Positions 2,523 to 58,585 of a stretch of 64,000 nt of DNA are shown in pieces. The stretch spans positions 9,778 through 73,777 of the forward strand of contig CAYQPU010000002.1 of assembly GCA_964419615.1 (NCBI GenBank), written 5' to 3'. Made by a program: the position numbers and the translations under genes. The notes below the pieces were generated by a model, which worked only from the letters and a program-made list of their open reading frames with translations, ran no database searches and was not told the DNA's origin. Numbering within the stretch: the stretch's first letter is position 1; each line of letters opens with the position of its first letter. Source of the DNA: an uncultured Methanosarcinales archaeon (GTDB taxonomy: Archaea; Nanobdellota; Nanobdellia; Woesearchaeales; JAGVZT01).

Positions 2523-2654
2523 AAACTAGCTTAATATAACTCCTCATTAAATATATTTCGGAACTATTTTCAAATATAGGAGCATCATCCTAAATTAAGT
2601 TGTTGTTTTATTTTGAGCAAGGCTACAGTTTAATATTTCTAACAAAACTTCCAC

Positions 2655-5669: not shown

Positions 5670-5670
5670 A

Positions 5671-7481: not shown

Positions 7482-7524
7482 ATGTTTTTTTGAAACCTGA
7501 AGCTTTAAACTTGGGTTAATTCTC

Positions 7525-9162: not shown

Positions 9163-9296
9163 ATTACTAAAAAGAAGTTTAATGTATAAATAATTTATTA
9201 TAACGAGAATTTTTCAATTAAGAGAAATATGTATTAAAAAAACTTAACAATACATTTATTAACTATTATGCTATACTTTTGTCTTGTGAAACTTTA

Positions 9297-10193: not shown

Positions 10194-10199
10194 TTTGCA

Positions 10200-10880: not shown

Positions 10881-10961
10881 GAAAGACTCCCATTAATCTC
10901 TAAGCTACAAGATGGATTACTAATTAATCAGAAATCAGTAATGTAAAAAATTATAAAAAAA

Positions 10962-11468: not shown

Positions 11469-11511
11469 CTTATAAGCAAAGCTTAAATACACATTTCTTA
11501 ACTCATTTTAC

Positions 11512-12624: not shown

Positions 12625-12679
12625 TTAAACATAAGATATAAAAAGTCAACAGAAAAGTTTAAATAACTACCAACATATC

Positions 12680-13135
12680 TTGAAAATTGGTGAGAGGATG
12701 GATGTAATAAAAACTATTGACAATATCTCAATATATAAAGATAATGTAGTACTTAGTGTGAATGAAAAAATATATCCTCTGGATATAATCTATTCTGCTT
12801 CCTATGTGTTTATGGATCGGGCATATGTTGTGATGGGTGGAGGTGGAGATGATTCAGAGGTTTTGGTGACTCTGAGGCCCAAAAAGAAAGAAAATCTAGA
12901 AGAACTTGGTAGGGATTTTAATAATGAGCTTATTAATTATGCTGTTTACAAAGAACAAAGTGTCAAGAGTAGAGGGATTAAAGAAACAATTGTTCGAAAA
13001 GCACTTGAATCTAATGTCCCAAGTTCAGGCGAATGTTCTGATGATGAATTGGGTGAGGACTCTGATGAGAGCTATAAAGATGATCCTTTAGGCATAGCTG
13101 TTCCATGGGAAGAAAAGGAAGGGAAGAATGAATAA
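12680..13135 (+). CDS. Small acidic protein, paralog of the next gene; candidate HxsD-like accessory protein
   Basis: 151 aa. It shares ...Y..D..YV.....G...VLVTL+PK.K..L+ELG.+F.N.LI... with 13128..13373. ELINYAVYKE loosely resembles the LLNDYxLRE signature I recall for the His-Xaa-Ser system protein HxsD. It lies immediately upstream of the SPASM maturase. Confidence 0.3.
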   Translation: MKIGERMDVIKTIDNISIYKDNVVLSVNEKIYPLDIIYSASYVFMDRAYVVMGGGGDDSEVLVTLRPKKKENLEELGRDFNNELINYAVYKEQSVKSRGIKETIVRKALESNVPSSGECSDDELGEDSDESYKDDPLGIAVPWEEKEGKNE

Positions 13136-13373
13136 TATCACAGTAAAAAAAGGGGTTGTTCGAATATTGGTTGATACCCGGTACTATGGTTTTGGAGCAG
13201 TACTCACAGCTGCAAAGGCATACCTGGATTCCTGTTGGGTCTTTGTTGATGGGGATCTTGAAGATCAGGTTTTGGTTACATTAAAACCTAAAGACAAGAA
13301 AATTGATGTAGATTTGTTAGGATTCGAGTTTTTTAATTTTATGCTGGGGACAATTCAAAATGCCTACACCTAG
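13128..13373 (+). CDS. Small protein, paralog of 12680..13135; candidate HxsD-like
   Basis: 81 aa. VLVTLKPKDKKIDVDLLGFEFFNFMLG aligns with VLVTLRPKKKENLEELGRDFNNELINY of the preceding gene. It overlaps its neighbours by 8 and 14 nt (operonic). Confidence 0.3.
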   Translation: MNNITVKKGVVRILVDTRYYGFGAVLTAAKAYLDSCWVFVDGDLEDQVLVTLKPKDKKIDVDLLGFEFFNFMLGTIQNAYT

Positions 13374-14784
13374 GGCTTTTGATTTTATTGGTAGAACTAA
13401 GAAAATTGGTTCCAAGTATTTTGTTGCAAATATAGATGGTTCTTTTACTATGTTAACTGAAGAGGAGTATAGGAATCTTCTTTTAAAGAATCTTGACAAA
13501 GAGCTTTTTTTGGATTTAGAATCCAAGGGAGTTATTATCACGAGTAAGAATATTGATGTTATTGCTGGGCATTTTAGAAGAAGAAGGCAGGTTGTTTATC
13601 AGGGACCAAATTTACATATAGTCATACCAACTTTGAGGTGCAACCAGGTTTGTCTTTATTGTCATGCAGCCTCAAGAAGAATGGATGCCAAAGATTGTGA
13701 TATGGATAAGGAAACTGCAAAAAAAACTGTAGAATTTATTTTCCAGACTCCCTCCAGACCAATAACAATAGAATTCCAGGGGGGCGAGCCGCTTGTTAAG
13801 TTTGACATTATTAAATATATGCATAAATATGCAAACGAACTAAACAAGAAATATGAAAAAGACATTAGGTTTTCTATTGTTTCAAACCTAACATTGATGG
13901 ATGATAAAAAATTGGATTTTATAACAAAGAACATTATTGGGCTTTGTACAAGCCTGGACGGTCCAAAATACGTGCATGATAAGAACAGAAAGATGATTGG
14001 CGGATCTGGGAGCTATAACCTTGTTACAAATTGGATTCGAACATTTAATCAAGGATACAAGGAAGGCTATGCAAAACTTAATGCACTTGCAACCATCACC
14101 AGGCATTCTTTACCTTACCCAAAAGAAATCATTGATGAATATAAAGATTTAGGTTTGCGCGGAGTTTGGCTTAGGTGGGTGGACCCATTTGGATTTGCTG
14201 GATTTGCGTGGGACAAGATCAGCTATAGTGCTGAAGAATTTCTTGAGTTTTGGAAAAAGGGAGTAGATTATGTGTATGATGAATTAAAGGGATTTAAAGA
14301 GCTATCTTCTCTAATTTTGCTTCGAAAGATTTTTGCAAGATATGAACCCGCTTTTTTGGACATACTTAACCCGTGTGGTGCTGGCATTGGCCAGATGGCA
14401 TATATGCACGATGGCAGTATCTACAGCTGTGATGAGGGCAGAATGTATGGGGGAGACTTCTTTAAATTAGGGAATGTTAACCAATCATTTAGTAAAGTTA
14501 TGAGCTCTCCTAAAATGTGCAGCCTTATTGCGAGTTCTGTTAGTGAAAGCTATTTTTGTGATCATTGTGTATATCAACCTTATTGCGGGGTGTGTCCAGT
14601 CTGGAATTTTGCAGACACTGGCACTGTTGTTCCAAAATTGTCAATGGATCTTAGATGTAAAATATTAACCGGTCAGTTTGACTATTTGATTAATAAATAC
14701 TTCACTAATAAAAAATTCCAAAAAACAGTGGATAAGTTAATCAAATTGGGTGATTCTCAGATAGAAAAGAATCTGTGTATTTAA
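13360..14784 (+). CDS. Radical SAM/SPASM-domain maturase (anSME-like; HxsB/HxsC-like) with a ~95-aa N-terminal extension
   Basis: CNQVCLYCHAAS (CxxxCxxC), FQGGEPLV, and a C-terminal SPASM-type Cys array (CGAGIGQMAYMHDGSIYSCDEG ... CDHCVYQPYCGVCPVWNF). An N-terminal domain precedes the core and could serve as a leader-peptide recognition element. Confidence 0.75.
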   Translation: MPTPRAFDFIGRTKKIGSKYFVANIDGSFTMLTEEEYRNLLLKNLDKELFLDLESKGVIITSKNIDVIAGHFRRRRQVVYQGPNLHIVIPTLRCNQVCLYCHAASRRMDAKDCDMDKETAKKTVEFIFQTPSRPITIEFQGGEPLVKFDIIKYMHKYANELNKKYEKDIRFSIVSNLTLMDDKKLDFITKNIIGLCTSLDGPKYVHDKNRKMIGGSGSYNLVTNWIRTFNQGYKEGYAKLNALATITRHSLPYPKEIIDEYKDLGLRGVWLRWVDPFGFAGFAWDKISYSAEEFLEFWKKGVDYVYDELKGFKELSSLILLRKIFARYEPAFLDILNPCGAGIGQMAYMHDGSIYSCDEGRMYGGDFFKLGNVNQSFSKVMSSPKMCSLIASSVSESYFCDHCVYQPYCGVCPVWNFADTGTVVPKLSMDLRCKILTGQFDYLINKYFTNKKFQKTVDKLIKLGDSQIEKNLCI

Positions 14785-14795
14785 TTTTGCAAAAA

Positions 14796-14804
14796 TTTAT
14801 ATAT
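14796..14804 (+). promoter_or_regulatory. Candidate TATA box (tttatatat) for the precursor gene, with the SD-like ggaaggtga at 14829-14837
   Basis: An AT-rich TATA-like octamer ~40 nt upstream of the ATG at 14841. A purine-rich ribosome-binding site is correctly spaced. Confidence 0.25.
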
Positions 14805-14840
14805 CAATAGAATTCAGATATATTAAAAAGGAAGGTGAGT

Positions 14841-15272
14841 ATGGGAAATAAAATTTTGCCAAGAGTTAAAAAATCCCTCCGAGGTTATCTTATGGGGGAG
14901 GATGGTAAGATTAGTAAGCAATCCATGCTTGTTATTGGAACTTTTTTAGGCGCTGCAGCGCTCTCCACAATCACTATAAGTAAAAGCGTTAGTGCCCAAC
15001 ATGTGTCTCATGGTTCACATTGTTCTCATAGCAGCCACAGTGCCCATAGCAGCCATAGTTCACATAGCAACCACGGAAGTCACAGCAGTCACGGTTCTCA
15101 CGGAAGTCACGGTTCTCATGGATCCCATGGATCCCATGGTAGTCATGGTTCCCATAGTAATCATGGTAGTCATGGAAGCCATGGTTCCCATGGTTCCCAT
15201 GGTTCCCATAGTAATCATGGTAGTCATGGATCTCATTGGAATGGATGCTGGCCGGGAGCTAACGTCATATAG
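14841..15272 (+). CDS. His-Xaa-Ser repeat precursor-like protein (HxsA-like): leader with a hydrophobic segment plus ~30 tandem H-G-S/H-S-S/H-x-S triplets
   Basis: MGNKILPRVKKSLRGYLMGEDGKISKQSMLVIGTFLGAAALSTITISKSVSAQ, then HVSHGSHCSHSSHSAHSSHSSHSNHGSHSSH(GSH)n...HSNHGSHGSHWNGCWPGANVI. The ATG at 14841 with its SD is preferred over the track's GTG at 14835. It sits between two SPASM radical-SAM genes. Confidence 0.6.
   Translation: MGNKILPRVKKSLRGYLMGEDGKISKQSMLVIGTFLGAAALSTITISKSVSAQHVSHGSHCSHSSHSAHSSHSSHSNHGSHSSHGSHGSHGSHGSHGSHGSHGSHSNHGSHGSHGSHGSHGSHSNHGSHGSHWNGCWPGANVI
14995..15235 (+). repeat. Tandem 9-bp coding repeat (tcc cat gga / agt cat ggt variants) encoding the (HGS)n array
   Basis: Direct reading shows tcacggaagtcacggttctcatggatcccatggatcccatggtagtcatggttcccat... 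with near-perfect periodicity of 9 nt. Confidence 0.8.
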
Positions 15273-15300
15273 ATTGTAAAACCATTATTTTTGTATTGAA

Positions 15301-17238
15301 ATGCAAATCAGATTATTTAACATTAAAAAGAAGAAGTTTGAATATATTAATGAAAGAGATATCTCTAATCATCTAAGTGAGTTAGATAAGCTAATTCATA
15401 TTGTAAGCAACCATAGAAATAGATATTATTACTTACCAAAAAAAACCGCAATAATTGAAATCCCAAAAAGTATCTCTTGTTACCAGTCTCATCCTTCAGA
15501 CACAGAATCAGATCTGTTCAAAATTGTTGATAAGGATATAAAAAGAGACCGAGAAAAGCCTCTTTTTAAAGATCTAATTATAAATATGCACTCAAAATGT
15601 AATTTGGATTGTAAGTATTGTTTTGGATTTTCAAAAGATAAAGAGTTAGAGACACCCACTGAAACAATAGTGGCTCTCATTAGCTATCTCTATAAAAAAA
15701 GATATTCTCTGAATAGAATCTATTTCTTGGGATCTGGTGAAACACTACTTGAGTTTAATAGATTTAAAGATATAGTTTCGATACTTAAACAGTATTATCC
15801 AAATGTTCCAATAATAGTTGTTACAAATGGTATTTTATCAAAGCAAAAAATAGACTGGTTGATTAAAAGAAAGATAAATATAAGGTTGAGTTGTGATGGT
15901 CCAGCTTTTATAAATGATGTTTCTAGACCCATAAAAAATAGCACAAAAAAACCATCAGAGACAGTTCATGCTAACCTCCAATACATAGTAAAGAATACAT
16001 CTTTATTTACAATAGCACCAACTATTACAAAATTATCTCAGGGATTTGAATCAAACATACTATACTTTTTTTGGAAATTAGGTGTGAAACTTGATAAGAT
16101 CAGCTGGAACCATGCATCATGCAGAGGAAAAGCAAAGGAACAGCCTACTATCTTAATGAATTATGATGAAATTAACAGATCACAAATTGTGTGGGATGAG
16201 TTGGAAGATATACTTGGAGATTACACTAAAACAAATATGTTTGTTAATATGATGGGAACACCTTTTCTTTGTGGAACCATTAATTTTGGCTGGATCACAA
16301 TTGATGAAAGAGGATGTATTAGTAGCTGTTCAAAGCATGTAAATTCTCTGAATAATTCCTTAATTGAAAAACTTTTAATTGGAAGATATGATTTTGAATC
16401 CAAAAAAATCCTTATTTCAAGTAACTCAATTAAGAATACAAATAATTGGATTATATCTGTAATGGAAAAGACAGATTGTTTTAATTGTGAATATCTTTCA
16501 CTTTGTCGGGGCCCATGCTTCTATGATTCACTTGTGATTGAAGACAATATTGGTGAAGATAACAAAACAAATATCCAGTGTATTAAAAGGAAAAATTATG
16601 TTAATAATATCCTACAATATTTGATTGAGACTCATATGTGGAAGAAATATCCACACCACTTAGTAGAGAATGGAATAGAATACTTTAACTATTCTCATAA
16701 TAAGTTTGAGATTAGAGATCCCAATGACCTCCCAAATAAGTTTCAAAGTGCGATCAAGATTAAGATAGACGTTGAAAATAATTTAGGCAAACAAATAGAT
16801 CACTTAATTAATTTAAGTAATTCTGAAAATTATTGTTTTAGATTTTTTTTACTTGAATTTAAAATAAACTTAACCAATCCGGAACAAATAGCTAAGAAAA
16901 TAAACCACTTTCTTGGAAAATTACAGCAAAATTTTGTGTGTTTCCTTGTATTAAAGCCTCTCCCTTATTGTGTTAGGAGATATATTAAAAAAACTTTTTC
17001 AATACCAAACACTTGTCTTGAATGCAACAAAATGTTTACCGTAAAAGACAACAAAGTAATATTTTGTGATGGATCAGATGGGAAGAAATTTGATAAATAT
17101 GTAGACAGGACGCAGATTTTCAATGACTTTAAGAAAATTAATAAGAACACTAATAATCTCTGCCTAAATTGCATTTACAAGGATAGAAAATTATGTTTTG
17201 GTTATGTTGAAAATATTAATTGTATTGCGAACAATTAA
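15301..17238 (+). CDS. Large radical SAM/SPASM-domain protein (second maturase of the pair; HxsC/HxsB-like) with N- and C-terminal extensions
   Basis: ~100-aa N-terminal domain, then CNLDCKYCFGFS, GSGETLLEF and VVTNG. A SPASM-like CFNCEYLSLCRGPCFYD is followed by a Cys-rich tail (CLECNKMF..FCDGSD..CLNCIYKDRKLCFGY). 645 aa. Confidence 0.65.
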   Translation: MQIRLFNIKKKKFEYINERDISNHLSELDKLIHIVSNHRNRYYYLPKKTAIIEIPKSISCYQSHPSDTESDLFKIVDKDIKRDREKPLFKDLIINMHSKCNLDCKYCFGFSKDKELETPTETIVALISYLYKKRYSLNRIYFLGSGETLLEFNRFKDIVSILKQYYPNVPIIVVTNGILSKQKIDWLIKRKINIRLSCDGPAFINDVSRPIKNSTKKPSETVHANLQYIVKNTSLFTIAPTITKLSQGFESNILYFFWKLGVKLDKISWNHASCRGKAKEQPTILMNYDEINRSQIVWDELEDILGDYTKTNMFVNMMGTPFLCGTINFGWITIDERGCISSCSKHVNSLNNSLIEKLLIGRYDFESKKILISSNSIKNTNNWIISVMEKTDCFNCEYLSLCRGPCFYDSLVIEDNIGEDNKTNIQCIKRKNYVNNILQYLIETHMWKKYPHHLVENGIEYFNYSHNKFEIRDPNDLPNKFQSAIKIKIDVENNLGKQIDHLINLSNSENYCFRFFLLEFKINLTNPEQIAKKINHFLGKLQQNFVCFLVLKPLPYCVRRYIKKTFSIPNTCLECNKMFTVKDNKVIFCDGSDGKKFDKYVDRTQIFNDFKKINKNTNNLCLNCIYKDRKLCFGYVENINCIANN

Positions 17239-17653
17239 CATAAGTTACATATAAACCTAAAACATCATTCTCCTTAGTGTCTATCATATAAGAACCCTTG
17301 TCTGTAGTAATTATTGCTATTTCCTTCTCGTGTATGATTTTATTCAATTGGAGTGCAATGGGTTCTGAAGTATCATTAATTCCTAAAGTTTTATTGTTAA
17401 TTGATATAATTGTTTCACCAACCGAGATAGAAGTATTACCAAATTTACTATAAGTGCTAATGTTGACTATTGTTAACCCACAAACAGGATTATTTGAATA
17501 TGCTTCTTTACTTAAGTTTACCCATAACAAAGTTTCATTCATAGAATCATTAACACTAGAAGAATTGGAAAATACTTGGAAAAATAAGTAAAATACAGCA
17601 ACCACTATTATAAACCACACAATTTTCTTTTTTGAATATTTATCTTTTATCAA
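17216..17653 (-). CDS. Small membrane-anchored extracytoplasmic protein (hypothetical)
   Basis: N-terminal TM (KKIVWFIIVVAVFYLFFQVF), then a Ser/Asn-rich region with several N-x-S/T sequons. No domain recognised. Confidence 0.3.
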   Translation of the reverse strand: MIKDKYSKKKIVWFIIVVAVFYLFFQVFSNSSSVNDSMNETLLWVNLSKEAYSNNPVCGLTIVNISTYSKFGNTSISVGETIISINNKTLGINDTSEPIALQLNKIIHEKEIAIITTDKGSYMIDTKENDVLGLYVTYVNCSQYN

Positions 17654-17887
17654 GATGAATTAATAACCTCTTTGTTATATTTTTAAAACTTTCTATTTTT
17701 ATATCCTATTCAAAAGTAGTTTCCAAATATAAAAAGATTTTTGAAACCAGTTTAGTTAATAACATAAATTAAACAGTTTGTGCATAAGATCTTAATCTTA
17801 TTTAACTGCTTAGCTTGGATTTTCAGAAAAAACTTTATTGATTATCCAAAGAAAAGATTTAAATAACATTATTGAGACTTTCTAAAC

Positions 17888-18817
17888 ATGGGCAAAAGAG
17901 TAGACATTAAGACTGGTTTTAAGTGCAACAATAATTGTAAGTTCTGTGTACAGGCTTGGAAAAAGCCAGAAGGCAATCGACCCAAAGAAGATATTTCTAA
18001 AGACCTGTATGATGCAAAAAAAGCAGGATGCGTGGGAGTTGTTTTTACTGGTGGAGAGGTTTCAATAAGGGCAGATTTTTTTGAGCTTTTAGAGTGTGCA
18101 CATGACATTGGATTTGCTGAAATCCAAGTACAAACAAATGCAAGAAGGTTTTATTACATGGATTTTTGCATAAAAGCAGTGAGGGCAGGCATGAATGATT
18201 TTGGGCCAGCAATTCATGGACATACAGCAGAGTTGCATGATTCATTGACACAAAGCCAAGGAAGCTTTAATCAAGCCTGCCAAGCTATAAAAAATATAAA
18301 ATCTCTTGGAGTTAATGTGATTACAAACACTGTTGTTGTTAGACCCAATTATAAGTTTATTCCAGAGATAGCAAAATTACTGGTCAGCCTTGATGTGAAT
18401 CAATACCAGTTTGCATTTATGCATGCTGTAGGCAACGCTATGGATAATTATAATAAAATGATGCCAAGAGTAAGTCTGGCTGCTCCCTACATTAAAAAAG
18501 GACTTCAGATAGGAATTGATGCAGGCAAAAAAGTAATGGCTGAAGCAATGCCTTATTGTGTTATGAAAGGATATGAGAGATACACTTCTGAACTTTACAT
18601 ACCTGAAACTGAAATTAGGGATACAACCAGTTATGATCCTGATTTTGGAAATACCAGGAGAACACAAGGAAAGGTGAAATTTTCAAAATGCAAGCAGTGC
18701 AAGTACGACCTTATCTGTGAAGGTCCATGGAAAGAGTATCCGGAAAGAATGGGCTCAAAGGAGTTTGTACCTGTGAAAGGTGACAAAATAATAAGTGCTA
18801 AGGAGATCCTATGCTAG
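17888..18817 (+). CDS. Radical SAM protein, MoaA/PqqE-like paralog
   Basis: FKCNNNCKFC, FTGGEVSIRADF, VQTNARRF, and the C-terminal CKQCKYDLICEGPWKEYPERMGSKEFVPV. Confidence 0.7.
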   Translation: MGKRVDIKTGFKCNNNCKFCVQAWKKPEGNRPKEDISKDLYDAKKAGCVGVVFTGGEVSIRADFFELLECAHDIGFAEIQVQTNARRFYYMDFCIKAVRAGMNDFGPAIHGHTAELHDSLTQSQGSFNQACQAIKNIKSLGVNVITNTVVVRPNYKFIPEIAKLLVSLDVNQYQFAFMHAVGNAMDNYNKMMPRVSLAAPYIKKGLQIGIDAGKKVMAEAMPYCVMKGYERYTSELYIPETEIRDTTSYDPDFGNTRRTQGKVKFSKCKQCKYDLICEGPWKEYPERMGSKEFVPVKGDKIISAKEILC

Positions 18818-19773
18818 AACAATATAAACCTGTTAACTATGGTGAAGAGTATGTGGAATTTTGTGGGAGTTCACAATACCCAATGTTTGTTGCAACTGCA
18901 CTAGGTGTTAAGCCTTGTTTTGATGATTGGGTTCCTTGCAATAAATATGGAGAATTTGTAGGAATCTGTAAGGAATACGGGTTATTTGTTGAGCCGGATG
19001 TGGTTTTTGTAAAAACGAGTTTAGATAAAAAACAGGTTGTAGGAGGAGACACAATTACAACAACATTTACAGAGGTTGTGCCGTTTAAGGAAAATGCCAA
19101 GAATGGGCAGGTGCATGTTTTTGTATCAAAAGCCAAAGACCAAGCAATTAGAACTAGGAGGTGTGGGTGGTATCCGGGAATTATTAGTGGCAGATCAGTA
19201 AATAAACCATTTGTTGACCACATGAGATTTGGAAAGAACTTGGGTTTCCCAGAATGCTGTGTGGATTTCTTTAGAAAGTACAATAATTGGGCAAAATACT
19301 CACACCCATACGAAAGCTATAATAGCACACCAAACAAAAGTAGTCCGTCCTCATATTATTGTAATAATTTCACAATGGATTTTATCTATTTTTATATTCA
19401 CCATATCCCATGTAATTTTAAATGCGATGCAACTATCGCTTCTGCAAAAGTTGTAGAGAATAAAATAAAAGATGTTGAACCAAAATTTGTTGAGAAAACT
19501 AATAAGATTCTAAAAAGTCCGTTGTTAGTCTTTGGTGAACGTAATTTCATATTGTTTGAGGAAGGTAATTACTCAAAAGGAGAATTAAAATACAAAAAAA
19601 CAAAATATATCTCAAATTACGCCCGAAAAGAGGATAGAGTTGGATTTATTAATGATGTTCAAAAAGGCAATAGTTTGTTTTTCAAAGATAAGAAATTATG
19701 TGTAGAGAAAAATGAAAACTTAATCTTTGAGATAGAGAAAGAGCCTGAATGGTTTATAATTGATTTTCAATAA
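18811..19773 (+). CDS. Hypothetical Cys-motif protein (GFPxCC ... HIPCxFKC); distant paralog of 43213..44115
   Basis: GFPECCVDFF ... YYCNNFTMDFIYFYIHHIPCNFKCDATI is shared with GYPKCCCKTI ... YCMNCCIPLIYHLPCSPKCQQT of the 43213 gene. Confidence 0.3.
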   Translation: MLEQYKPVNYGEEYVEFCGSSQYPMFVATALGVKPCFDDWVPCNKYGEFVGICKEYGLFVEPDVVFVKTSLDKKQVVGGDTITTTFTEVVPFKENAKNGQVHVFVSKAKDQAIRTRRCGWYPGIISGRSVNKPFVDHMRFGKNLGFPECCVDFFRKYNNWAKYSHPYESYNSTPNKSSPSSYYCNNFTMDFIYFYIHHIPCNFKCDATIASAKVVENKIKDVEPKFVEKTNKILKSPLLVFGERNFILFEEGNYSKGELKYKKTKYISNYARKEDRVGFINDVQKGNSLFFKDKKLCVEKNENLIFEIEKEPEWFIIDFQ

Positions 19774-20251
19774 AATGATTAAAGAACTTGAAGAATATCT
19801 TAGATTCCCAGTCAAAAGGGTTATTGTTAAATTAGACTATGAGACCCCTCATGATGAGGCTTTCTCATACGCAATTTGTCAGAGATTCTTTAATAAACCA
19901 GATCAGTTAAAAACTGCGATGCAACTTGGAAATAAGGCTCTCAACCAATTGCTAAAAAAAGAAGATTATATCCAGATTAGTCATCTATTTGCACTTGTTG
20001 GGAATATGTACTATCTCCAGGAGAAATATAAAATCAGTGCGGGATACTTTTTAAAGAGCATAAATTATAATAAAAAAGATCTTACCAGTTGGATTGAGCT
20101 GATATTCTCAATAAGAGCCATGGGAGATTTTGATACATTTGATAAGTGTATATTTAATCTTAAAAAGCTATATACGCTTGGACAAAGAGAAGAAGAGATT
20201 ACACAACAAACGCTGCTAAAACTAATTGAGCAGGCATGTAAAAATGGGTAA
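19760..20251 (+). CDS. Hypothetical helical protein (TPR-like repeat character)
   Basis: 163 aa, helical with an A/L/Y/K-rich periodicity. It overlaps the start of the next radical-SAM gene. Confidence 0.25.
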   Translation: MIFNKMIKELEEYLRFPVKRVIVKLDYETPHDEAFSYAICQRFFNKPDQLKTAMQLGNKALNQLLKKEDYIQISHLFALVGNMYYLQEKYKISAGYFLKSINYNKKDLTSWIELIFSIRAMGDFDTFDKCIFNLKKLYTLGQREEEITQQTLLKLIEQACKNG

Positions 20252-21149
20252 TAAATCAGAAGTAATCGGGTTGATCCATAAATGCAATTGTTTATGTATT
20301 ATGTGTCCAAATTCTTTAAGTTATCGTAAACTTAAAGATATGACTAAACTTGAATTTTTTGAGTGGGTAGACAGACTTACACCAGATGTCAACCACATTA
20401 CCTTTACAGGAGGTGAACCAACTCTCCGACGCGATTTGTTTGAGCTTATTAATTATGTTAATCAGAAGAGGCCAGACATACATATGAGGCTGCTTACAAA
20501 TGCCAGGATGTTTTATTACAAATCTTATTTGGATGATTTTCTTGCTCAAGGCCTAAAAAACCTCGAATTTGGCATCCCTATTTGTGGACCAAATGCAAAA
20601 ACCCATGATAAGGTTACAAAGGCTAAAGGTAGCTTTGAGCAAACCATGGGGGGAATGAAGAACCTCATGGCAAATGGATTTTTAGTTGAATTAAGAATTG
20701 TGATTAATAAGATCAATCTTGATGAGTTGAATAATATGTCTGAGCTGATCAAAAAAGAACTAAATGATGTACTCAGGATCACATTTTATTACATGCAAAT
20801 CACAGGAAATGCTTTAAAAAATAAGGACGAAGTTTTTATTTCATATAAAAAAATTCGTGATAAAATTGATATTGCGCTTAACAGTCTGAATGGGTTTACA
20901 ATTGGACTTTGTCATTTCCCACTTTGCACTGTTAATCCAAAATGGTGGCCAATTGTTTGGAGGAGCGTTGTTGATAGGAAGCTGTTTTTCCCTGAAAAAT
21001 GTAATTTGTGTTTGTATAAAAAGTATTGCCTGGGAGTTATGAAAAGTTATAGGGCCAATTTTGGGGTAGGAGAATTTCAGCCAATTAAACAAAAGTACAA
21101 TATTGTTGAGAGCAATGATCTAGCACGGCCAATAAAAGAGGTGCTATAA
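20226..21149 (+). CDS. Radical SAM protein, MoaA/PqqE-like paralog
   Basis: HKCNCLCIMC, FTGGEPTLRRDL, LLTNARMF, and the C-terminal CNLCLYKKYCLGVMKSYRANFGVGEFQPI. The alternative ATG at 20244 is possible. Confidence 0.7.
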   Translation: MSRHVKMGNKSEVIGLIHKCNCLCIMCPNSLSYRKLKDMTKLEFFEWVDRLTPDVNHITFTGGEPTLRRDLFELINYVNQKRPDIHMRLLTNARMFYYKSYLDDFLAQGLKNLEFGIPICGPNAKTHDKVTKAKGSFEQTMGGMKNLMANGFLVELRIVINKINLDELNNMSELIKKELNDVLRITFYYMQITGNALKNKDEVFISYKKIRDKIDIALNSLNGFTIGLCHFPLCTVNPKWWPIVWRSVVDRKLFFPEKCNLCLYKKYCLGVMKSYRANFGVGEFQPIKQKYNIVESNDLARPIKEVL

Positions 21150-29327: not shown

Positions 29328-29927
29328 ATGGGAGATTACACTCAATCTACAGAGTATAGTGGCGCAGCTGCAGCCCTCTTAATAGTCATTAATCAGTTAA
29401 AGCCAAGCCATAAACTAACAAAACTAAATGAATTCAAAATATGGCTTTACTCTGTTAATTTACCCACTAGAGCATGTTCAATCTATGGTCTAGCAAGCTA
29501 CGCACTAACAAAAGGAGTGAAGTGTAGTATAATGGTAGGTAAGCAAGAGTACGATTTTCCAGATTATAGATTCAAAGGTTATAAAAAAGATGATATTGAA
29601 ATAGCCAAGTATACTGAAGACATACATCTACACAAATTCAAGGAATTGGGTGGAATCCTAGAGGAAAAAGCCATCACAATAGCTAAAGTCAAACAGATGC
29701 TTAAATCTAATAGGATACTAATCCTTAGAACTGATGCTGGTTCATTCAGAGACCTTAGACCCTCCTCAAATTACATTGTTGTTACTGGGTTTAGGAATAA
29801 GAGTTTTGAGATTCATGATCCATACCAAGGCAAAATAAACTTACGTGAGACTCAGATAGTGCAGTGTTTTGAAGATTTGGTAGTCAAGAGAAAAAGAGAC
29901 CCTAGAATGATAATATTCTCAAAATAA
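29328..29927 (+). CDS. Peptidase C39-like domain protein with substituted catalytic positions
   Basis: YSGAAAALLIVINQL lies where C39 enzymes have CGxAALxMV (Ser replaces Cys). NYIVVTGF...EIHDPYQG resembles HYVVL....I.DP but with Asn replacing His. Confidence 0.3.
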   Translation: MGDYTQSTEYSGAAAALLIVINQLKPSHKLTKLNEFKIWLYSVNLPTRACSIYGLASYALTKGVKCSIMVGKQEYDFPDYRFKGYKKDDIEIAKYTEDIHLHKFKELGGILEEKAITIAKVKQMLKSNRILILRTDAGSFRDLRPSSNYIVVTGFRNKSFEIHDPYQGKINLRETQIVQCFEDLVVKRKRDPRMIIFSK

Positions 29928-29940
29928 TATTCGCTCTATT

Positions 29941-31266
29941 CTAAAGATGCTGAGTTTTTCGTTTGGAATACTGAACCGGATTTTTAATCCTCTTGCATAA
30001 ATTATCAGGCTTGCAAATTCGTATATCTGCATAATAAGACAAATTTTGACAATTAGGGGGGAGTATTGCTTGTTTTCTATGCTTTCTATATTTGATCTGA
30101 CCTTCCAAAATAGTTGGTTTTAATGGCTCTTCATTTTTTTTATTCCAAGCCCTGGCTCTTTGTTCAATTTGCTCAAAACTCCAGCCACAACTCTTTAGAA
30201 AATTCATCATACAAAACAAAAACCTTTTTCTCCCATCTTTTAAGCCCTTCATACCCAAACACATACAAGGAGGAAAAAACTTCTCAGGAATAGCGATTTC
30301 AGGAATCTCAACAACTTTTTCTTCCTTTGGTTTAACATAATGCTTAACTTGATAATCAAATGCTTGCACTATCAATTGTCTGGCTTCTCCTTGCATTAAA
30401 GTTGAATCATTTAAAAATTTGAATTCTCCAACTTTCACATTCTCAGGCTTAGCCATCTCCTTTGAAAAATCTGCCACTTTATTTGGATCAATTGGAATTG
30501 ATACCAATCTTGATTTTTCATGTAAAGAATATGGCATTCGATAAAGATGCCTGCTTGAAATAAGTACAGTATCAATCTCTAAAAAAGCATCAACATTAAG
30601 TTTTTTTATCCTTAATCCAGACTTTGTTTTTGACAAAGCTGTAACCTTTCCTGGATCAAGATTAACTCTCTGTGCAATCTTGTCTAAATCATTACATTCA
30701 AAGTCCATAATCTTTTTTTCAAGCTCAGGTTGAATCATATCTCGAAGATAAAGGGCAATTGCCCTTGCTCCATCGGGAAACAAAGTTTTGGTTTTCCTTC
30801 CTGTAACCTCCTCAGGGAATGCATTAAATGGAACTCCTAAATGAAATCCCTTATTTCCTGAGAACTTACAACTAACAGACTTAATATTATAATATTGTAG
30901 TGCTTTAACAAGCAATTCAGCTGCAAATTTGGAATAGTCAACCGAAGCACAATCAATATCCAAAACAAGGTCCCACCCTGCTCTTTGTTCCTCTAATTGC
31001 TTCCTACTAAGTGAAACATCCAACTGTAAAGGATTATTCCATATCTCTTCAGATGCATGAAATGAAGTTGCTCCCTGCTTTGCAGCTTCAAAAACATCTA
31101 AGGGATACTGCAGAATATCCGGTCTTTTTCCAAAACCCCTATCTCCGTATCTTGTGGCTATTTCCTTGCCCTTTGCAGCTTCACAAATAGCATCCTGAAT
31201 GTCCTTTCTTTTATAATGTTTAATTGCAGTGCTAATTAAAAGCATGCTCTGGCTAAAGATTCTCAC
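29941..31266 (-). CDS. DNA primase: PriS catalytic core fused to a PriL-CTD-like Fe-S module
   Basis: WDLVLDIDC (DxD) and SGNKGFHLGV are PriS motifs. The C-terminal FPPCMCLGMKGLKDGRKRFLFCMMNFLKSCGW has 4 Cys and a PPCM motif like the PriL C-terminal domain. 441 aa. Confidence 0.55.
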   Translation of the reverse strand: MRIFSQSMLLISTAIKHYKRKDIQDAICEAAKGKEIATRYGDRGFGKRPDILQYPLDVFEAAKQGATSFHASEEIWNNPLQLDVSLSRKQLEEQRAGWDLVLDIDCASVDYSKFAAELLVKALQYYNIKSVSCKFSGNKGFHLGVPFNAFPEEVTGRKTKTLFPDGARAIALYLRDMIQPELEKKIMDFECNDLDKIAQRVNLDPGKVTALSKTKSGLRIKKLNVDAFLEIDTVLISSRHLYRMPYSLHEKSRLVSIPIDPNKVADFSKEMAKPENVKVGEFKFLNDSTLMQGEARQLIVQAFDYQVKHYVKPKEEKVVEIPEIAIPEKFFPPCMCLGMKGLKDGRKRFLFCMMNFLKSCGWSFEQIEQRARAWNKKNEEPLKPTILEGQIKYRKHRKQAILPPNCQNLSYYADIRICKPDNLCKRIKNPVQYSKRKTQHL

Positions 31267-38239: not shown

Positions 38240-38791
38240 TTAAAGAAAATACAAAAAGTACCCCTCAGGTTTAACTAATTTTTTTAATTGATTAGTTATT
38301 CTTCTCTTAAAAAACAAAGAACCCCATCTATATTGAGAAGTGGGTGACGTAAACAAACCAAAAGCATTTGCAATATCAATTTCACCTGCATAGTTTTTCA
38401 TTAAAAATTCAAGACTTTTTCTTGGTAGTAAATCAACCTCATAGTGCTCAAACAATTCAGTCTCTAAATCAGCAATATCAATTCCAATAACATGAACTCC
38501 TAATTTTTCTAAAGCTCTTGGACCTAATGGCAAAAACTCATATTTGTCTGGATCACTATCCTTACTTTGTTTTGAACCACATCCAAGATCAAGAATAATC
38601 TTGTCCTCCAATTCACCATCAGTAAAATGAAGATAGTAACTTAGTTGCTTTCTAATGCTTTTAAACATGGTACCTGTAATTGAAACATCATATTCTTCTT
38701 CAAGCAAAGGAACAACTTGTTTTGTAAGAACTTCGGCTTGATCTTTGTACTGAGTAAGAACATATACCTTTCTGTAATTGTAAATTCTCAT
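38240..38791 (-). CDS. Putative SAM-dependent methyltransferase-like protein
   Basis: IILDLGCGSKQS resembles MTase motif I. 183 aa. Confidence 0.35.
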   Translation of the reverse strand: MRIYNYRKVYVLTQYKDQAEVLTKQVVPLLEEEYDVSITGTMFKSIRKQLSYYLHFTDGELEDKIILDLGCGSKQSKDSDPDKYEFLPLGPRALEKLGVHVIGIDIADLETELFEHYEVDLLPRKSLEFLMKNYAGEIDIANAFGLFTSPTSQYRWGSLFFKRRITNQLKKLVKPEGYFLYFL

Positions 38792-38792
38792 T

Positions 38793-39428
38793 CTAACCTA
38801 CAAATTCTAAAAGCTTTTCCAATGACTTAATTGTCAAAGAAGCTTGAATACCTGGAAAACTATATTCCTCTCTATCCACTAAGATGTCATAAACATTTGC
38901 AGCTTTGCCAGCTTGTATGTCTTGTACTGTATTCCCTACAAAAAAAGCCTTATCTGCGGATTCACCTAGCATTTCCAAGCACGCATTAATTCCTTGAGGA
39001 TCTGGCTTAGGTTTAATTCCATAGGCTGAGTTTGCATTAACTATAGCATCAAACTCTAAATTAAGCAAAGCCATTTCTGGATCAGATATGCGTTTTGGAG
39101 CCATGGTTACAATACCAAGTTTTAGACCTTTACTTTTCAGCTCATTTAGCACCCAAACATCTTCATAAGCACTTGAATATTTTTCTCTTAATTCAACAGT
39201 ATTAAGAATTTCAAACAGCGGCCAAAACTCAGAAGGTTTCAACCCGAAATCATTTGTTATAATTTCATTTCTATTCCGCTCAAACCAAAATTTGTCTATC
39301 AGTTCATCACTAGTAGTTTTACCATAAATATCCAGGACTTGGCCCACAATAATTTGCCTATGCTCTGCATCAGTATAAATCAGTGTCCCATCCAGATCAA
39401 ATAAAGCAGTAGTATACTTCATGAACAA
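38793..39428 (-). CDS. HAD-superfamily hydrolase
   Basis: ALFDLDGTLIYTD (the DxDGT nucleophile motif) and a downstream GNTVQD. 211 aa. Confidence 0.75.
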   Translation of the reverse strand: MFMKYTTALFDLDGTLIYTDAEHRQIIVGQVLDIYGKTTSDELIDKFWFERNRNEIITNDFGLKPSEFWPLFEILNTVELREKYSSAYEDVWVLNELKSKGLKLGIVTMAPKRISDPEMALLNLEFDAIVNANSAYGIKPKPDPQGINACLEMLGESADKAFFVGNTVQDIQAGKAANVYDILVDREEYSFPGIQASLTIKSLEKLLEFVG

Positions 39429-39620
39429 TGGGAATCCTCATATATTTAAAATATTAATGATGTAGATTCAGTTTTGAATAATTCCTCATTAAATTTAACA
39501 TTATTCCAAAAATTTGTATTTTCTTTCTTTTTATTTCTTAATTTAAGTAAAAAATCTTCACACATTATTAATAAAATCTTGGTTTCCCATTATTGATATA
39601 GCAATCATAACAACATAAAG

Positions 39621-40097
39621 GTGAAACAAATGATAACAGAACCATTAAGATTTACACAAGAACAAAAAGAGGTTATCAAACAAACTTACGAAGCATTGGA
39701 AAAAAAGCTATTGGCATATGATGGGAGCCTTGAAATTGAAATAAGCATAACACCCCATGGTAATTTAGATAATTATTATTTTAAAGTCATAGCACACAAC
39801 ATGGCAGACTATTTAGGAATGAATGGTCCAGTCGATGGTCAACAAGATAAAACACAATTTGTACATATTGGAATCTTTCCCCCCTCTGAATCAAGTTATT
39901 ATGTGACTTTTAGGTTTGATTTTGGCTCCACTGAAATGAGAACTGAATTTGCAGATATAATAACAGAAAGCGGAGTAGTTAAGGTTAGTGACAAGGGTCC
40001 TGTTTTGTACAGCACAACCTCAGAAGATTTAACTGATATTGATTTTGAAAAACCAATAATGCTTTACTATAAACTGGCTGAAAATTATCCTGGTTAA
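39621..40097 (+). CDS. Hypothetical protein
   Basis: 158-aa ORF. Good coding character, no recognisable motif. Confidence 0.3.
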   Translation: MKQMITEPLRFTQEQKEVIKQTYEALEKKLLAYDGSLEIEISITPHGNLDNYYFKVIAHNMADYLGMNGPVDGQQDKTQFVHIGIFPPSESSYYVTFRFDFGSTEMRTEFADIITESGVVKVSDKGPVLYSTTSEDLTDIDFEKPIMLYYKLAENYPG

Positions 40098-40110
40098 ATG
40101 GAGGAACAAT

Positions 40111-40644
40111 ATGACAAAACTACCAACACAAGAGGAAATCAATGCCTGGTTAGACACAAAAGAAGGAAAACATGTACTTCACACAATGCATGCAATAGAT
40201 GCTGCAAGACATGGAATGTGGTTTGATTTAAACGATTTATTCTTTGACAATAAAATGGCTGAAATGTCAGGTGATGAACAATATCAATATCTAAAAGAAC
40301 TAATGCCTATTGAAAGCATTTATTGGGCAGCATACTTACCAGTTCAAGATTGTCTAGTGTTAGGTGATGAAGATAACTTTTTTGAACATCATGATGATTC
40401 TCTCGCAGAAAGACTAGTAAAATTCGGTGCTGTTCAAATTGACAAAAAATTCATTCAAGGTACAGTAGCAATAGTTAAAAGCAACGAATGGAAAATCTTT
40501 GACACAACAATACCTAGTGAGTATCAAACTGTACAAACATGTGTGACTGGATTACAAAAGGAAGGCCATGTTTTGTTAGAAAGAACAGTCGATGAAGATT
40601 CCAAACCTTATTATGAAATTCATATGCCAAAATCGAAGTATTAA
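40111..40644 (+). CDS. Hypothetical protein
   Basis: 177-aa ORF directly following the previous gene. No motif recognised. Confidence 0.3.
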   Translation: MTKLPTQEEINAWLDTKEGKHVLHTMHAIDAARHGMWFDLNDLFFDNKMAEMSGDEQYQYLKELMPIESIYWAAYLPVQDCLVLGDEDNFFEHHDDSLAERLVKFGAVQIDKKFIQGTVAIVKSNEWKIFDTTIPSEYQTVQTCVTGLQKEGHVLLERTVDEDSKPYYEIHMPKSKY

Positions 40645-40680
40645 GATTTCTGCTTTTGAATAATAAAAAAAGGAAAGACC

Positions 40681-40824
40681 TACATCTTTCCAATTTTAAA
40701 CATTTTTGTACCACACTCAGAACATACTCCCTTAACAGCGTCCCTACCATTGTCCATAATATGTGGTTTAGCGTCTTTCATTTCTCTTTTCTCTTTACAC
40801 TTCATGCAATATCCTTGTACCATT
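40681..40824 (-). CDS. Small zinc-ribbon protein (DUF5679-like), missed by the ORF track (<60 aa)
   Basis: Minus-strand ORF MVQGYCMKCKEKREMKDAKPHIMDNGRDAVKGVCSECGTKMFKIGKM (47 aa) with CxxC...CxxC. GGAGG lies 8 nt upstream of the ATG. It matches a small archaeal protein family I recall. Confidence 0.5.
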
Positions 40825-40848
40825 CTTTTTCCTCCTTATCAAAATAAT

Positions 40849-41009
40849 AGCCCCAGGCAGACTTTCAAAATCCTTCTTCCAAAGCGGATTCGACAAAGTC
40901 GAAGACGCCATTTTTGGTCGAACTTTTCAGCGAAGCGGAAAAAGGTCGTTTTCGAACTGCCGCCAATCGGCCCAGAACCGAGTATCCTTGACCACTAGAC
41001 CATGGGGCT
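40849..41009 (-). tRNA. tRNA-Gln(CUG): tRNA-Gln(CUG) with an ~88-nt non-canonical intron in the T-loop (position 59/60 or 60/61)
   Basis: Minus strand. 5' exon AGCCCCA-UG-GUCU-AGUGGUCAA-GGAU-A-CUCGG-UUCUGGG-CCGAU-UGGC-GGCAG-UUCGAA, then an 88-nt insert (40863-40950), then 3' exon U-CUGCC-UGGGGCU-A. This gives a 7-bp acceptor stem, A14, G18G19, U33, anticodon CUG, T-stem GGCAG/CUGCC, T-loop UUCGAAU, discriminator A. No encoded CCA; oligo-U follows. Confidence 0.55.
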
Positions 41010-41078
41010 ATATATCAAGCAAAATATTACATCATTTAAAAAGATTTTTATATTCTAATCTCTAAGGTTCAAATTACC

Positions 41079-41741
41079 ATGACAAAAACAAACATATTCT
41101 CAATATTATCATTAGTATTTGCATTTTTGTTTTTTCCTTTAGGATTGATATTTGGAATAATTGCGTTAATTCAAATAAAAAAGACAGGTGAACAAGGAAA
41201 AGGGTCTGATGCCACAGGTATTGACAGTTGGCAGAGGAGCAGGCATTATGAGATGAGGATAGGAGAATCAAATATGCCTTACGCCAAAGCAGACATTATA
41301 GTTGATACAGATAACAAAATGGTATATGGTCATGTCTTGAGAATAAAACCAAGACATGATGTGATTGGTGCAGAGAGTATTTTCAAACGTATGAAGTACA
41401 AGCACATACTTGTGCTTGGAGATAAAGGATATGACAGCGAACCTTTACATAGAGTAGCAGAGCAGGAAGGATTCCTGCTCTATGCTCCTCCTAGAGATAG
41501 CTCAAGGAAGTCTCCAAGAGGCAAGCACAGAAAACGTTGTGCAAGGTATCCTCCTGACGGGAAAGGGATGCGCAGCATTGTTGAATCTGTGATAAGAAGC
41601 TTAAAATCAAGATCTGTCTCTCTGAAATCACGACTGCATTACATGAAAAAAAGAGAATTTGCTTGGAAAATACTCTCATATAACATTGAACTTTTTGCGC
41701 AACTGATTAATCAGTTGCACTGGCTGATAAATTCAGCTTAA
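41079..41741 (+). mobile_element. IS5/IS4-family DDE transposase C-terminal remnant fused in-frame to an N-terminal transmembrane peptide
   Basis: ILVLGDKGYDSEPLHRVAEQEGFLLYAPPR...RYPP...RSIVESVIRSLKS...EFAWKILSYNIELFAQL matches the C-terminal conserved region of IS5-family transposases. The HTH and first catalytic Asp are absent. Local GC is elevated. It lies next to the tRNA. Confidence 0.45.
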
Positions 41742-56002: not shown

Positions 56003-58585
56003 ATGAACATACAGTACAAAGAAGAACCAGACAATGAAGAGCAAATCCTAACTATTTTGCACCCCATTGTCAAAGAATGGTTCTATTCAAAATTCAAAGA
56101 ATTCTCCTTACCACAAAGATATGGTGTATCTGAAATTCATGCAAGGCAAAATATACTTGTCTCAGCTCCAACAGGAGCCACAAAAACCTTAACAGCTTTC
56201 CTGTCAATACTAAACGAATTAGTAGACTGCGCAGAAAAAGAAATATTGGAAGATAAAATTTATGCTGTCTACATCTCTCCATTAAAAGCATTAAACCATG
56301 ACATAGAAGTAAATCTAGCTACCCCATTAAAGGAAATTGAAGCAATAGCAGGCAAACCACTTGGAATAAGAGTGGCAGTCAGAACAGGTGACACAACAGC
56401 CTACCAAAAATCAAAAATGCTCAAGAATCCACCACATATTCTAATCACAACACCTGAATCACTGGGGATTGTTCTTTCCACAGTTAAATTCAGAGAATTA
56501 CTAACAAACGTTGACTGGTGCATTGTGGATGAAATACATGCTCTTGCTGAAAACAAAAGAGGAGTACATCTATCTTTGAGCTTAGAAAGACTTCAAAGAT
56601 TAAGCACACACATATGCCGAGTTGGATTATCAGCAACAGTAGCTCCATTAATTGAAGTATCAAAATTTCTTGTTGGTTATGATAATGGTGAACTCAGACC
56701 ATGCAAAATAGTCGATGTACAATTTATAAAAGACATGGATCTAAAAGTTTTAAGTCCAGTACCTGATCTAATAGAAACATCACATCATGACCTACACCAA
56801 AAAATGTATGAACTAATGGATAAACTAATACAAGATCACAAAACAACATTAGTCTTTACAAACACAAGGGCGGCAACAGAAAGAGTTGTTGATAACCTAA
56901 AAGACAAATACCCACAAAAGTACAAAGATAATATTGGAGCACACCATGGTTCTTTAAGCAAAACACTTAGACTAAGTATTGAAAACAAACTTAGAAATGG
57001 AGAACTAAAAGCAGTTGTATGCTCAACAAGTTTAGAACTTGGAATTGATATAGGTTACATTGACTTAGTAATTCTTTTAGGATCTCCAAAATCAGTTGCA
57101 AGAGCGTTGCAAAGAATAGGAAGATCAGGTCATAAACTACATGACACAACAAAGGGTAGAATAATTGTTCTAGATAGGGATGACTTAGTTGAATGCTCAG
57201 TTCTATTAAAAAGTGCTGTGGAAAAGAAAATGGACAAACTGCACATCCCAACAAACTGCTTAGATGTAATGTCACAACACATTTATGGGATAGCAATAGC
57301 AGGCCAGATTCATATTGATACATTATTCAAATTAATAAAAAAAAGCTACTGCTATCACAAACTCCCAAGAAAAGACTTTATGCAAATAATAGACTATCTT
57401 GCAGGAGAGTATGTCTCACTAGAAGAAAGACATGTATATGCAAAAATATGGTACGACAAAGACACTGGAATGATAGGTAGGAAAGGAAGAATGGCCAGAG
57501 TCATCTACATGACAAACATTGGCACAATACCTGACGAAACAAGAGTGCTAGTTAAAGTTGGAAACAACTTAATTGGCACAATTGAGGAAGCTTACCTTGA
57601 AAAACTAAAAAGAGGGGATGTGTTTGTTCTCGGAGGACAAACCTATGAATTCCTATTTGCCAGAGGTATGGTTGCGCAGGTCTCAGCAAGCACTTATCGG
57701 CCTCCAAATGTGCCAAGATGGTTTAGCGAAACCCTACCCTTAAGTTTTGATCTGGCCTTAGAAATTGGCAGGTTCAGAAGATTAATGGAAGACAAATTTG
57801 CAAACAAAATGTCAGAACAAGAAATAATCAAATTTATTTTAGATTTTCTATATGTTGATCAAAACGGTGCAATAGCAATCTATAACTACTTCAAATACCA
57901 ATATGAATACGCAGAAATACCACACGATAAAAAGATTGTAATAGAACATTATAAATCAGAAAGAGGTTCGTTTTACATCTTCCATTCTCTATTAGGCAGA
58001 AGAGTAAATGACTGCTTAAGTAGAGCGATTGGATTAGCAGTCTCAAGACAAGTCCTTAAAGGAGTTGAAATTGGAATCAATGATAATGGGTTTTACTTAT
58101 TTACTAACAAAAAACCTAACATAATGTCAGCTGTTAAAATCCTAAGGTCTGACAAGCTTAATCTTGTAATGAAAGTTGCAATAGAAAAAACTGAGATCTT
58201 AAAAAGAAGATTCAGGCACTGTGCAACACGAGCATTAATGATACTTAGAAACTACAAAGGCAGGAGAAAAAGAGTGGGAAAGCAGCAAGTAAGCTCTATG
58301 ATCCTTATGGCAACAGTAAAAAGAATAGACCCAAACTTTACAATCCTTAGGGAAGCGCGAAGAGAAGTATTAGAGGATTTAATGGATATAAAAAACACAG
58401 GGAAAATTTTAAAACAAATAGAAGATGAAAAAATTAAAATCAAACAGATCAACACACAAATCCCATCTCCATTTGCATTTAACCTTGTAACCCAAGGCCA
58501 TGCAGACATAATGAAAATGGAAGACAGATTGGAATTTCTAAAAAGAATGCACAATATGGTCAAGGCTAAGATTAGCTTGGGATAA
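56003..58585 (+). CDS. lhr: Lhr-like large superfamily-2 (DExH) helicase
   Basis: Motif I VSAPTGATKT (variant Walker A), motif II CIVDEIHAL, motif VI QRIGRSGH, and a long C-terminal Lhr-type extension. 860 aa. Confidence 0.7.
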   Translation: MNIQYKEEPDNEEQILTILHPIVKEWFYSKFKEFSLPQRYGVSEIHARQNILVSAPTGATKTLTAFLSILNELVDCAEKEILEDKIYAVYISPLKALNHDIEVNLATPLKEIEAIAGKPLGIRVAVRTGDTTAYQKSKMLKNPPHILITTPESLGIVLSTVKFRELLTNVDWCIVDEIHALAENKRGVHLSLSLERLQRLSTHICRVGLSATVAPLIEVSKFLVGYDNGELRPCKIVDVQFIKDMDLKVLSPVPDLIETSHHDLHQKMYELMDKLIQDHKTTLVFTNTRAATERVVDNLKDKYPQKYKDNIGAHHGSLSKTLRLSIENKLRNGELKAVVCSTSLELGIDIGYIDLVILLGSPKSVARALQRIGRSGHKLHDTTKGRIIVLDRDDLVECSVLLKSAVEKKMDKLHIPTNCLDVMSQHIYGIAIAGQIHIDTLFKLIKKSYCYHKLPRKDFMQIIDYLAGEYVSLEERHVYAKIWYDKDTGMIGRKGRMARVIYMTNIGTIPDETRVLVKVGNNLIGTIEEAYLEKLKRGDVFVLGGQTYEFLFARGMVAQVSASTYRPPNVPRWFSETLPLSFDLALEIGRFRRLMEDKFANKMSEQEIIKFILDFLYVDQNGAIAIYNYFKYQYEYAEIPHDKKIVIEHYKSERGSFYIFHSLLGRRVNDCLSRAIGLAVSRQVLKGVEIGINDNGFYLFTNKKPNIMSAVKILRSDKLNLVMKVAIEKTEILKRRFRHCATRALMILRNYKGRRKRVGKQQVSSMILMATVKRIDPNFTILREARREVLEDLMDIKNTGKILKQIEDEKIKIKQINTQIPSPFAFNLVTQGHADIMKMEDRLEFLKRMHNMVKAKISLG

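Follow-up and report, generated by a model that had tools for sequence, protein, structure and literature searches.

The minus strand of the window, i.e., the 64-kb stretch of DNA analysed here, contains at positions 41009-40848 a tRNA-Gln(CUG) gene made up of a 59-nt exon, an 89-nt intron and a 14-nt exon. Read along this strand, exon 1 (AGCCCCAUGGUCUAGUGGUCAAGGAUACUCGGUUCUGGGCCGAUUGGCGGCAGUUCGAA) is followed by the 89 intervening nucleotides and then by exon 2 (UCUGCCUGGGGCUA). Exon 1 (40951..41009), delimited by direct reading and by ARAGORN on the spliced form, covers tRNA positions 1-59; it includes the 5' strand of the acceptor stem, the D-arm, the anticodon arm with its CUG, the variable loop, the T-stem strand GGCAG and residues U54-A59, and ends in UUCGAA. 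The intron (40862..40950) is located between T-loop positions 59 and 60. Exon 2 (40848..40861) provides U60, the 3' strand of the T-stem (CUGCC), the 3' strand of the acceptor stem (UGGGGCU) and the discriminator A73.

When the exons are joined in silico, the junction reads ...GGCAGUUCGAA-UCUGCCUGGGGCUA, and the resulting 73 nt form a full cloverleaf with a CUG anticodon. The acceptor stem is AGCCCCA/UGGGGCU (7 bp), and the D-arm consists of GUCU/GGAU together with A14 and G18G19. The anticodon arm has the stem CUCGG/CCGAU and the 7-nt loop UUCUGGG, with U33 and a purine at position 37; its C27.U43 mismatch counts against a functional gene. The variable loop has 4 nt. In the T-arm, the stem GGCAG/CUGCC closes the 7-nt loop UUCGAAU, which is complete solely after removal of the intron. 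The first pair A1-U72, invariant in 12 of 12 aligned homologs, and the discriminator A73 are both present, and we take them to be the features of archaeal tRNA-Gln that are recognised by GatDE. The initial annotation of this DNA had described a minus-strand cloverleaf that requires the removal of intervening nucleotides, and every stem it named can be read. It gave the intron as 88 nt; the actual length is 89 nt (40950-40862), as follows from its own coordinates, since 161 nt less 72 leave 89. Its range of 40849-41009 places the locus correctly and stops one base short of A73, which is at 40848.

A TATA-box-like element, TTTAAATG, is found by direct reading at 41033..41040 on the minus strand, at -31 to -24 from tRNA position 1. 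In the relatives L134, L136 and L133, the orthologs are preceded by boxes of the type TTTAAAT(G/A) or ATAAATA at a distance of about 30 nt. From its sequence and position, the element is likely an archaeal promoter. CCA is absent from the gene, and a T-rich tract, TTATTTT, is located 3' of A73. Taken together, the upstream box, the T-rich tract and the absence of CCA fit an independently expressed archaeal tRNA gene.

The gene is missed by standard finders on genomic DNA. Whether run with or without the anticodon-loop intron mode, ARAGORN had no match at the unspliced locus, and its standard run on the whole 64-kb window returned no tRNA. Rfam had no match at the locus, either at the gathering threshold or at E<=1. 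These misses on raw DNA are to be expected, as neither tool models T-loop introns. After deletion of the 89 nt, ARAGORN reported tRNA-Gln(ctg). Of the tRNA finders proposed in the initial annotation, ARAGORN was blank on genomic DNA, as was Rfam, and positive once the sequence was spliced. For annotation this means that a gene overlooked by ARAGORN and by Rfam/Infernal at curated thresholds would leave the genome seemingly without a tRNA-Gln(CUG). With a relaxed threshold, ARAGORN made 8 calls in the window, with 'introns' of 10-2360 nt or weak stems, which we judged to be noise; the two that were inspected, 2730-2835 and 56377-56451, are poor cloverleaves, the latter within an ORF. No hidden intact tRNA was found in the 64-kb window. 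We also considered and rejected a group I or group II self-splicing intron. The catalytic core of such introns spans a few hundred nucleotides and is recognised by Rfam models; the insertion has just 89 nt, and Rfam was blank at both thresholds.

The neighbouring genes in the window encode KEOPS Bud32, a RIO kinase, CysRS, an archaeal prepilin peptidase and a fused PriS-PriL primase. The best homologs of Bud32 are named Candidatus Woesearchaeota or Nanoarchaeia, and the G+C content of the window is about 33%. These three lines of evidence indicate that the DNA is that of a DPANN archaeon; judged by its sequence, the host is a Woesearchaeota (DPANN) archaeon, and the Bud32 homologs bear out the DPANN-type host suggested earlier. 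In the fused primase, the small- and large-subunit domains are contained in a single ORF (29941-31266, minus strand). Fused PriS-PriL occurs in Nanoarchaeota and other DPANN archaea, and in this respect it agrees with the host assignment. No EndA or RtcB domain was detected among the 58 window ORFs scanned.

Other features of the neighbourhood were noted in passing. The ORF directly upstream of the tRNA (41079-41741, plus strand) has a DUF4190 N-terminus followed by the C-terminal portion of a DDE transposase; at the same place, the relative L002 has an intact DUF4190 gene of 226 aa. Its make-up suggests an in-frame fusion with the remains of an IS. A block of about 2.6 kb (38240-40823) separates CysRS from the tRNA 3' end and contains five ORFs; one encodes a HAD hydrolase, one a DUF5679 zinc-ribbon protein, and the other three have no family. 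The block is missing in L002 and L004, where CysRS adjoins the tRNA; neither an integrase nor a repeated tRNA end was found. Elsewhere in the window, a further group of features (coordinates 3020-21149, with 14835-15272 and 15140-15223; 11512-12624; 29328-29927) includes at least ten clustered radical-SAM ORFs. The cluster includes a small ORF with collagen-like repeats, whose DNA contains a long palindromic repeat of the CATGG type with a weak 'mir-7131' match in Rfam. The archaeal prepilin peptidase is inside this cluster, and a C39-like peptidase follows about 8 kb downstream of it. The radical-SAM ORFs and the peptidases look like a peptide-maturation (RiPP-like) cluster, as far as their sequences indicate.

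Splice signal at position 59/60

The target of the archaeal splicing endonuclease is a 4-bp helix between two 3-nt bulges that bear the splice sites (PMC4090602). Relaxed half-motifs (hBH/HBh') are tolerated by some splicing endonucleases (PMC4090602; PMC3239211). In the window gene, the T-stem is the outer helix of such a motif, termed bulge-helix-bulge (BHB). The exon strand of the central 4-bp helix is U54 U55 C56 G57 (40953..40956, minus strand), as identified from folds and from the comparison of relatives. Its intron strand, UGAA (40867-40864), pairs with U54-G57 in the minimum-free-energy (MFE) fold of the precursor. In that same fold, the 3-nt bulge AG↓U60 (40863-40861; arrows mark cuts) adjoins the T-stem and holds the 3' splice site. 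The nucleotides of the 5' splice site, A58 A59↓A (40952-40950), directly follow the exon strand of the central helix.

Folded without constraints, the 162-nt precursor has an MFE structure that contains the acceptor stem and the T-stem as well as the exon-intron helix and the AGU bulge. This structure departs from a strict motif in its 5' half, where A58, A59 and the first A of the intron pair with UUU and lengthen the helix to 7 bp. When the strict motif is imposed, the energy rises by 3.7 kcal/mol and a 7x4 internal loop appears ahead of the 10-bp inner helix. The difference between the strands is exactly 3 nt, as required for a 3-nt bulge, and in the relatives L080, L091 and L114 the strict motif is itself the MFE structure. 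The motif in the window is best called relaxed (hBH-like), with a 5' half that appears non-strict in these folds. The search for a BHB or hBH motif at the junctions, which the initial annotation had recommended, did find one, exact in its 3' bulge and relaxed in its 5' half.

The geometry of the motif and the intron-less relatives set the intron position, previously given as 59/60 or 60/61. A 3' cut at G↓U60 implies a symmetrical 5' cut at A59↓A and yields the canonical T-loop UUCGAAU. Because all intron-less relatives have UUCGAAU, and because the BHB geometry sets the 3' cut at AG↓U60, the position is 59/60 and not 60/61.

For a wider sample, metagenomes were scanned with a D-arm/anticodon pattern. 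The scan returned 120 loci, from which 98 distinct tRNA-Gln(CUG) genes were parsed. The T-loop is uninterrupted in 82 of the 98, and 14, the window gene included, have an intron at 59/60; the remaining 2 parses are artefacts. Such introns had been described as rare, and among these related genes, at 14/98, they are not especially so. The 14 introns range from 20 to 118 nt and have unrelated interiors. All four pairs of the central helix form in 11 of the 14, and an AG↓U or AA↓U bulge is present at the same offset in every one (14/14). In an anchored alignment of the 14 introns, 94.6% of the central-helix cells are paired, versus 31-52% when the partner is slid by 1-3 columns. Changes from G-C to G.U and from U-A to U.G in this helix preserve pairing. 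The set had been selected on the T-stem, not on the central helix, and the 100% pairing of the T-stem is therefore partly by construction.

Related genes with and without the intron

The locus is present with 100% identity in contigs from three further samples, which are simply the same species. Samples containing the organism include JGI 3300009373 and 3300009320 and ENA ERZ23498658. In the relatives L002, L004 and L005, Bud32 is 75% identical and the tRNA gene is syntenic, between CysRS and a DUF4190 gene. The exons of this relative match those of the window at 69 of 73 positions (94.5%); in L002 and L004, exon 1 matches at 55/59 and exon 2 is identical. One of the four exon differences concerns the 28:42 pair of the L002-type relative, in which both sides have changed, from U-A to G.U, and are still paired. 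The L002-type intron, of 49 nt, is inserted at the same point and ends in UGAAAG↓U.

Intron length varies further in other relatives. L001, which is syntenic, has a 45-nt intron at 59/60 that ends in CGAGAG↓U and pairs with UUCG via G57-C and U54.G. L133 has a 28-nt intron at 59/60, and its gene neighbourhood differs from that of the window. No intron is found in L134, in which Bud32 is 72% identical and the gene neighbourhood is different; GGCAG-UUCGAAU-CUGCC is contiguous in this gene, and the same uninterrupted sequence is found in L065 and L010. L010 is one of 4 loci returned by a scan of a genome collection with a T-arm-specific pattern. Two of these were already known, and the other two are L010, an intron-less archaeal tRNA-Gln(CUG) in a MAG labelled Methanosarcinales, and L012 (Terriglobia). 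In a scan of viral contigs, the spliced T-arm and acceptor sequence matched a single contig. It was set aside as unrelated: the contig is GC-rich, and its tRNA ends in CCA and differs in the anticodon arm.

Among 12 homologs, spliced and native intron-less sequences align without gaps, and the acceptor, anticodon and T stems show compensatory changes. This covariation, together with the recurrence in relatives of conserved exons and differing introns at one site, makes the gene far more than a chance find. In evolutionary terms, the 59/60 intron has been gained, lost and resized (0, 28, 45, 49 and 89 nt) among close Woesearchaeota, while the splice signal stayed fixed.

Several of the related genes have introns elsewhere. 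An extra intron after approximately position 8/9 (AGCCCCGUA↓GA...CGG↓AAUCUAG) is present in L001, L021, L032, L091, L063 and L113, sometimes alongside introns at 37/38 and 59/60, giving up to three per gene. Relatives with the 8/9 intron have a partial acceptor-like repeat in the 5' leader. In L001, the tRNA-Gln gene with its two introns (near 8/9 and at 59/60) lies at about 1742-1930 on the plus strand, and a free-standing ORF resembling LAGLIDADG_3 homing endonucleases (1926-2588, minus strand) is located directly upstream of it. The tRNA-Gln(CUG) gene of L055 has a 31-nt insertion at another point in the T-loop, CCAGG-UU↓GCCGCC...GGGAA↓UUCGAAU-CCUGG. By its sequence, the intron would lie near 53/54-55/56, not at 59/60.

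Intron interior and alternative explanations

In the MFE folds, the interior of the intron is closed by a 10-bp inner helix, whose 5' strand is CCUUUUUCCG (40936..40945, minus strand) and whose 3' strand is UGGAAGAAGG (40872..40881). The L002 intron has a homologous inner helix, CCUUUUAU/AUAAAAGG. The folds and the alignment with the L002 intron also delimit a lineage-specific hairpin, GGCG-UC-UUCGAC-UUU-GUCGAA-UC-CGCU (40883..40909, minus strand). It belongs to about 40 nt that are missing from the 49-nt intron of this closest relative. The hairpin UUCGAC-UUU-GUCGAA had been noticed in the initial annotation and is indeed present in the MFE fold; the suggestion that it could encode a small RNA has no support, as set out below. 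An origin of the hairpin as a duplicated T-arm (TCGAATCCGC versus TCGAATCTGC) was rejected, in that shuffled sequences reach the local alignment score in 305 of 2000 cases.

Three other explanations of the locus were weighed. One accepts splicing and adds that the intron gives rise to a functional small RNA, either a guide or a stable circular RNA based on the GGCG-UUCGAC-UUU-GUCGAA-CGCU hairpin, on the model of the C/D-box RNA nested in archaeal tRNA-Trp introns. In its favour, 89 nt is far above the usual median of 12-25 nt, and the one class of long introns described in the literature nests C/D-box RNA (PMC4090602); the hairpin is stable and occurs in every fold, and the sequence is 100% identical in the contigs of three further samples. 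This identity merely reflects a shared species, however, and a C/D-box RNA was rejected because the boxes are absent: the 89 nt contain no RUGAUGA or UGAUGA C box, and the single CUGA, at intron positions 21-24, is in the wrong place. Rfam, again, is blank even at E<=1. The isolated intron folds no better than its own shuffles (z = -1.08), the hairpin has no further copy in the 64-kb window and no match in a scan of viral contigs, and the interiors of the 14 introns are unrelated. The segment with the hairpin is, moreover, the one absent from the closest relative. We regard this explanation as very unlikely. A narrower version of it, in which the module of about 40 nt (40883-40909 plus flanks) is not filler and the excised intron is circularised into a stable, functional small RNA, would be very unlikely; if true, the circular 89-nt intron RNA would be the archaeal counterpart of metazoan tRNA-intronic circular RNAs. 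In the preferred reading, given below, the constrained parts are the two intron ends and the closing helix alone, and the interior, hairpin included, is free to vary. Most likely, the interior has no function of its own.

It could instead be supposed that the locus is a dead pseudogene in which an 89-nt insertion broke the T-loop, while another tRNA-Gln copy or wobble by tRNA-Gln(UUG) suffices. The failure of tRNA finders and Rfam to recognise the locus, the position of the 5' splice site outside a strict bulge and the IS remnant immediately upstream speak for this scenario. What speaks against it is that the exons are 94.5% identical to those of the ortholog though Bud32 is just 75% identical, with the intron changing from 89 to 49 nt; that 14 independent introns share the insertion point, the UGAA/CGAA pairing and the AG↓U bulge; and that a promoter-like box and a T-tract terminator are kept. 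Because of the conservation of the exons and the recurrence of the splice signal, which random disruption would not give, a pseudogene is highly improbable. Nor does the insertion resemble the scar left by an element integrating at the T-loop or 3' half of the tRNA. Integrating elements classically target these parts of tRNA genes, the tRNA 3' end is adjoined by extra genes of about 2.6 kb in total (38240-40823) that are absent in L002, and a transposase fragment lies upstream. But there is no integrase, and neither exon end is duplicated in the 64-kb window; in L002 and L004 the intron occupies the same site although the 2.6-kb block is missing; and the intron ends are complementary to the T-loop in exact BHB register. 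We give an integration scar practically no credence and, on the grounds of the missing duplication and integrase and of the L002 intron that occurs without the block, consider it excluded.

Our preferred reading of the sequence is that this is very probably a functional tRNA-Gln(CUG) gene of a Woesearchaeota archaeon, with an 89-nt BHB intron at 59/60. Transcription would start from the gene's own TATA-type promoter. In the precursor, as sequence, folds and relatives show, GGCAG and CUGCC form the T-stem, and U54-G57 pair with UGAA of the intron. On the same evidence, this pairing exposes AG↓U60 in a 3-nt bulge, while the opposite strand bears A58 A59↓A at a distance of four base pairs. From what is known of archaeal tRNA splicing, EndA would then cut both sites, and an RtcB-type ligase would join the exons, giving rise to the 7-nt T-loop UUCGAAU; the intron would probably be circularised by this ligase step. 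CCA would be added after splicing. The locus provides a small, clean case in which constraint acts on the bulge-helix-bulge ends of such introns only.

Comparison with known archaeal introns

Position 59/60 is a listed non-canonical site of archaeal tRNA introns, with known lengths of 11-129 nt (PMC4090602). The 89-nt intron is longer than most such introns and is inside the reported range. The closest parallel in type is the 13-nt 59/60 intron of the pre-tRNA-Cys(GCA) of ARMAN-2 (Ca. Micrarchaeum); this intron has a relaxed hBH motif, and the ARMAN-2 endonuclease was shown to cut it in vitro (Fujishima et al. 2011, PMC3239211). The two introns share the T-loop site, a DPANN host, a relaxed hBH-like motif and the T-stem as outer helix. 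They differ in that the window intron is in tRNA-Gln of a Woesearchaeota archaeon, has 89 rather than 13 nt and has a structured interior.

In Thermoproteales and other Crenarchaeota, non-canonical BHB introns likewise have a 4-bp helix with flanking bulges, a motif that can move to positions such as 53/54, 56/57 and 59/60 (Marck & Grosjean 2003; Sugahara et al. 2008; reviewed in PMC4090602). Multiple introns per gene are found in these organisms, as they are in the relatives L001, L080 and L091. Unlike the window host, however, Crenarchaeota are TACK archaea with (alpha-beta)2 endonucleases, and most of their introns have 12-25 nt. The tRNA-Trp(CCA) intron of Haloferax and other Euryarchaeota resembles the window intron in being long, structured and removed via a BHB motif. 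That intron, by contrast, is at the canonical position 37/38 and has C, D', C' and D boxes, whereas the window intron lacks boxes and its interior is not conserved in relatives.

Within DPANN archaea, alpha4 EndAs with an L3 loop, present in multiple lineages, go with more disruption of tRNA genes (PMC5829648). Kaneta et al. (2018) included a Woesearchaeota genome among the DPANN genomes they analysed, and remarked that incomplete tRNA sets in these lineages indicate disrupted genes that have escaped detection (PMC5829648). The kind of intron, its 59/60 position and its occurrence in DPANN archaea are thus already established; the locus described here is an ordinary example that raises no new question.
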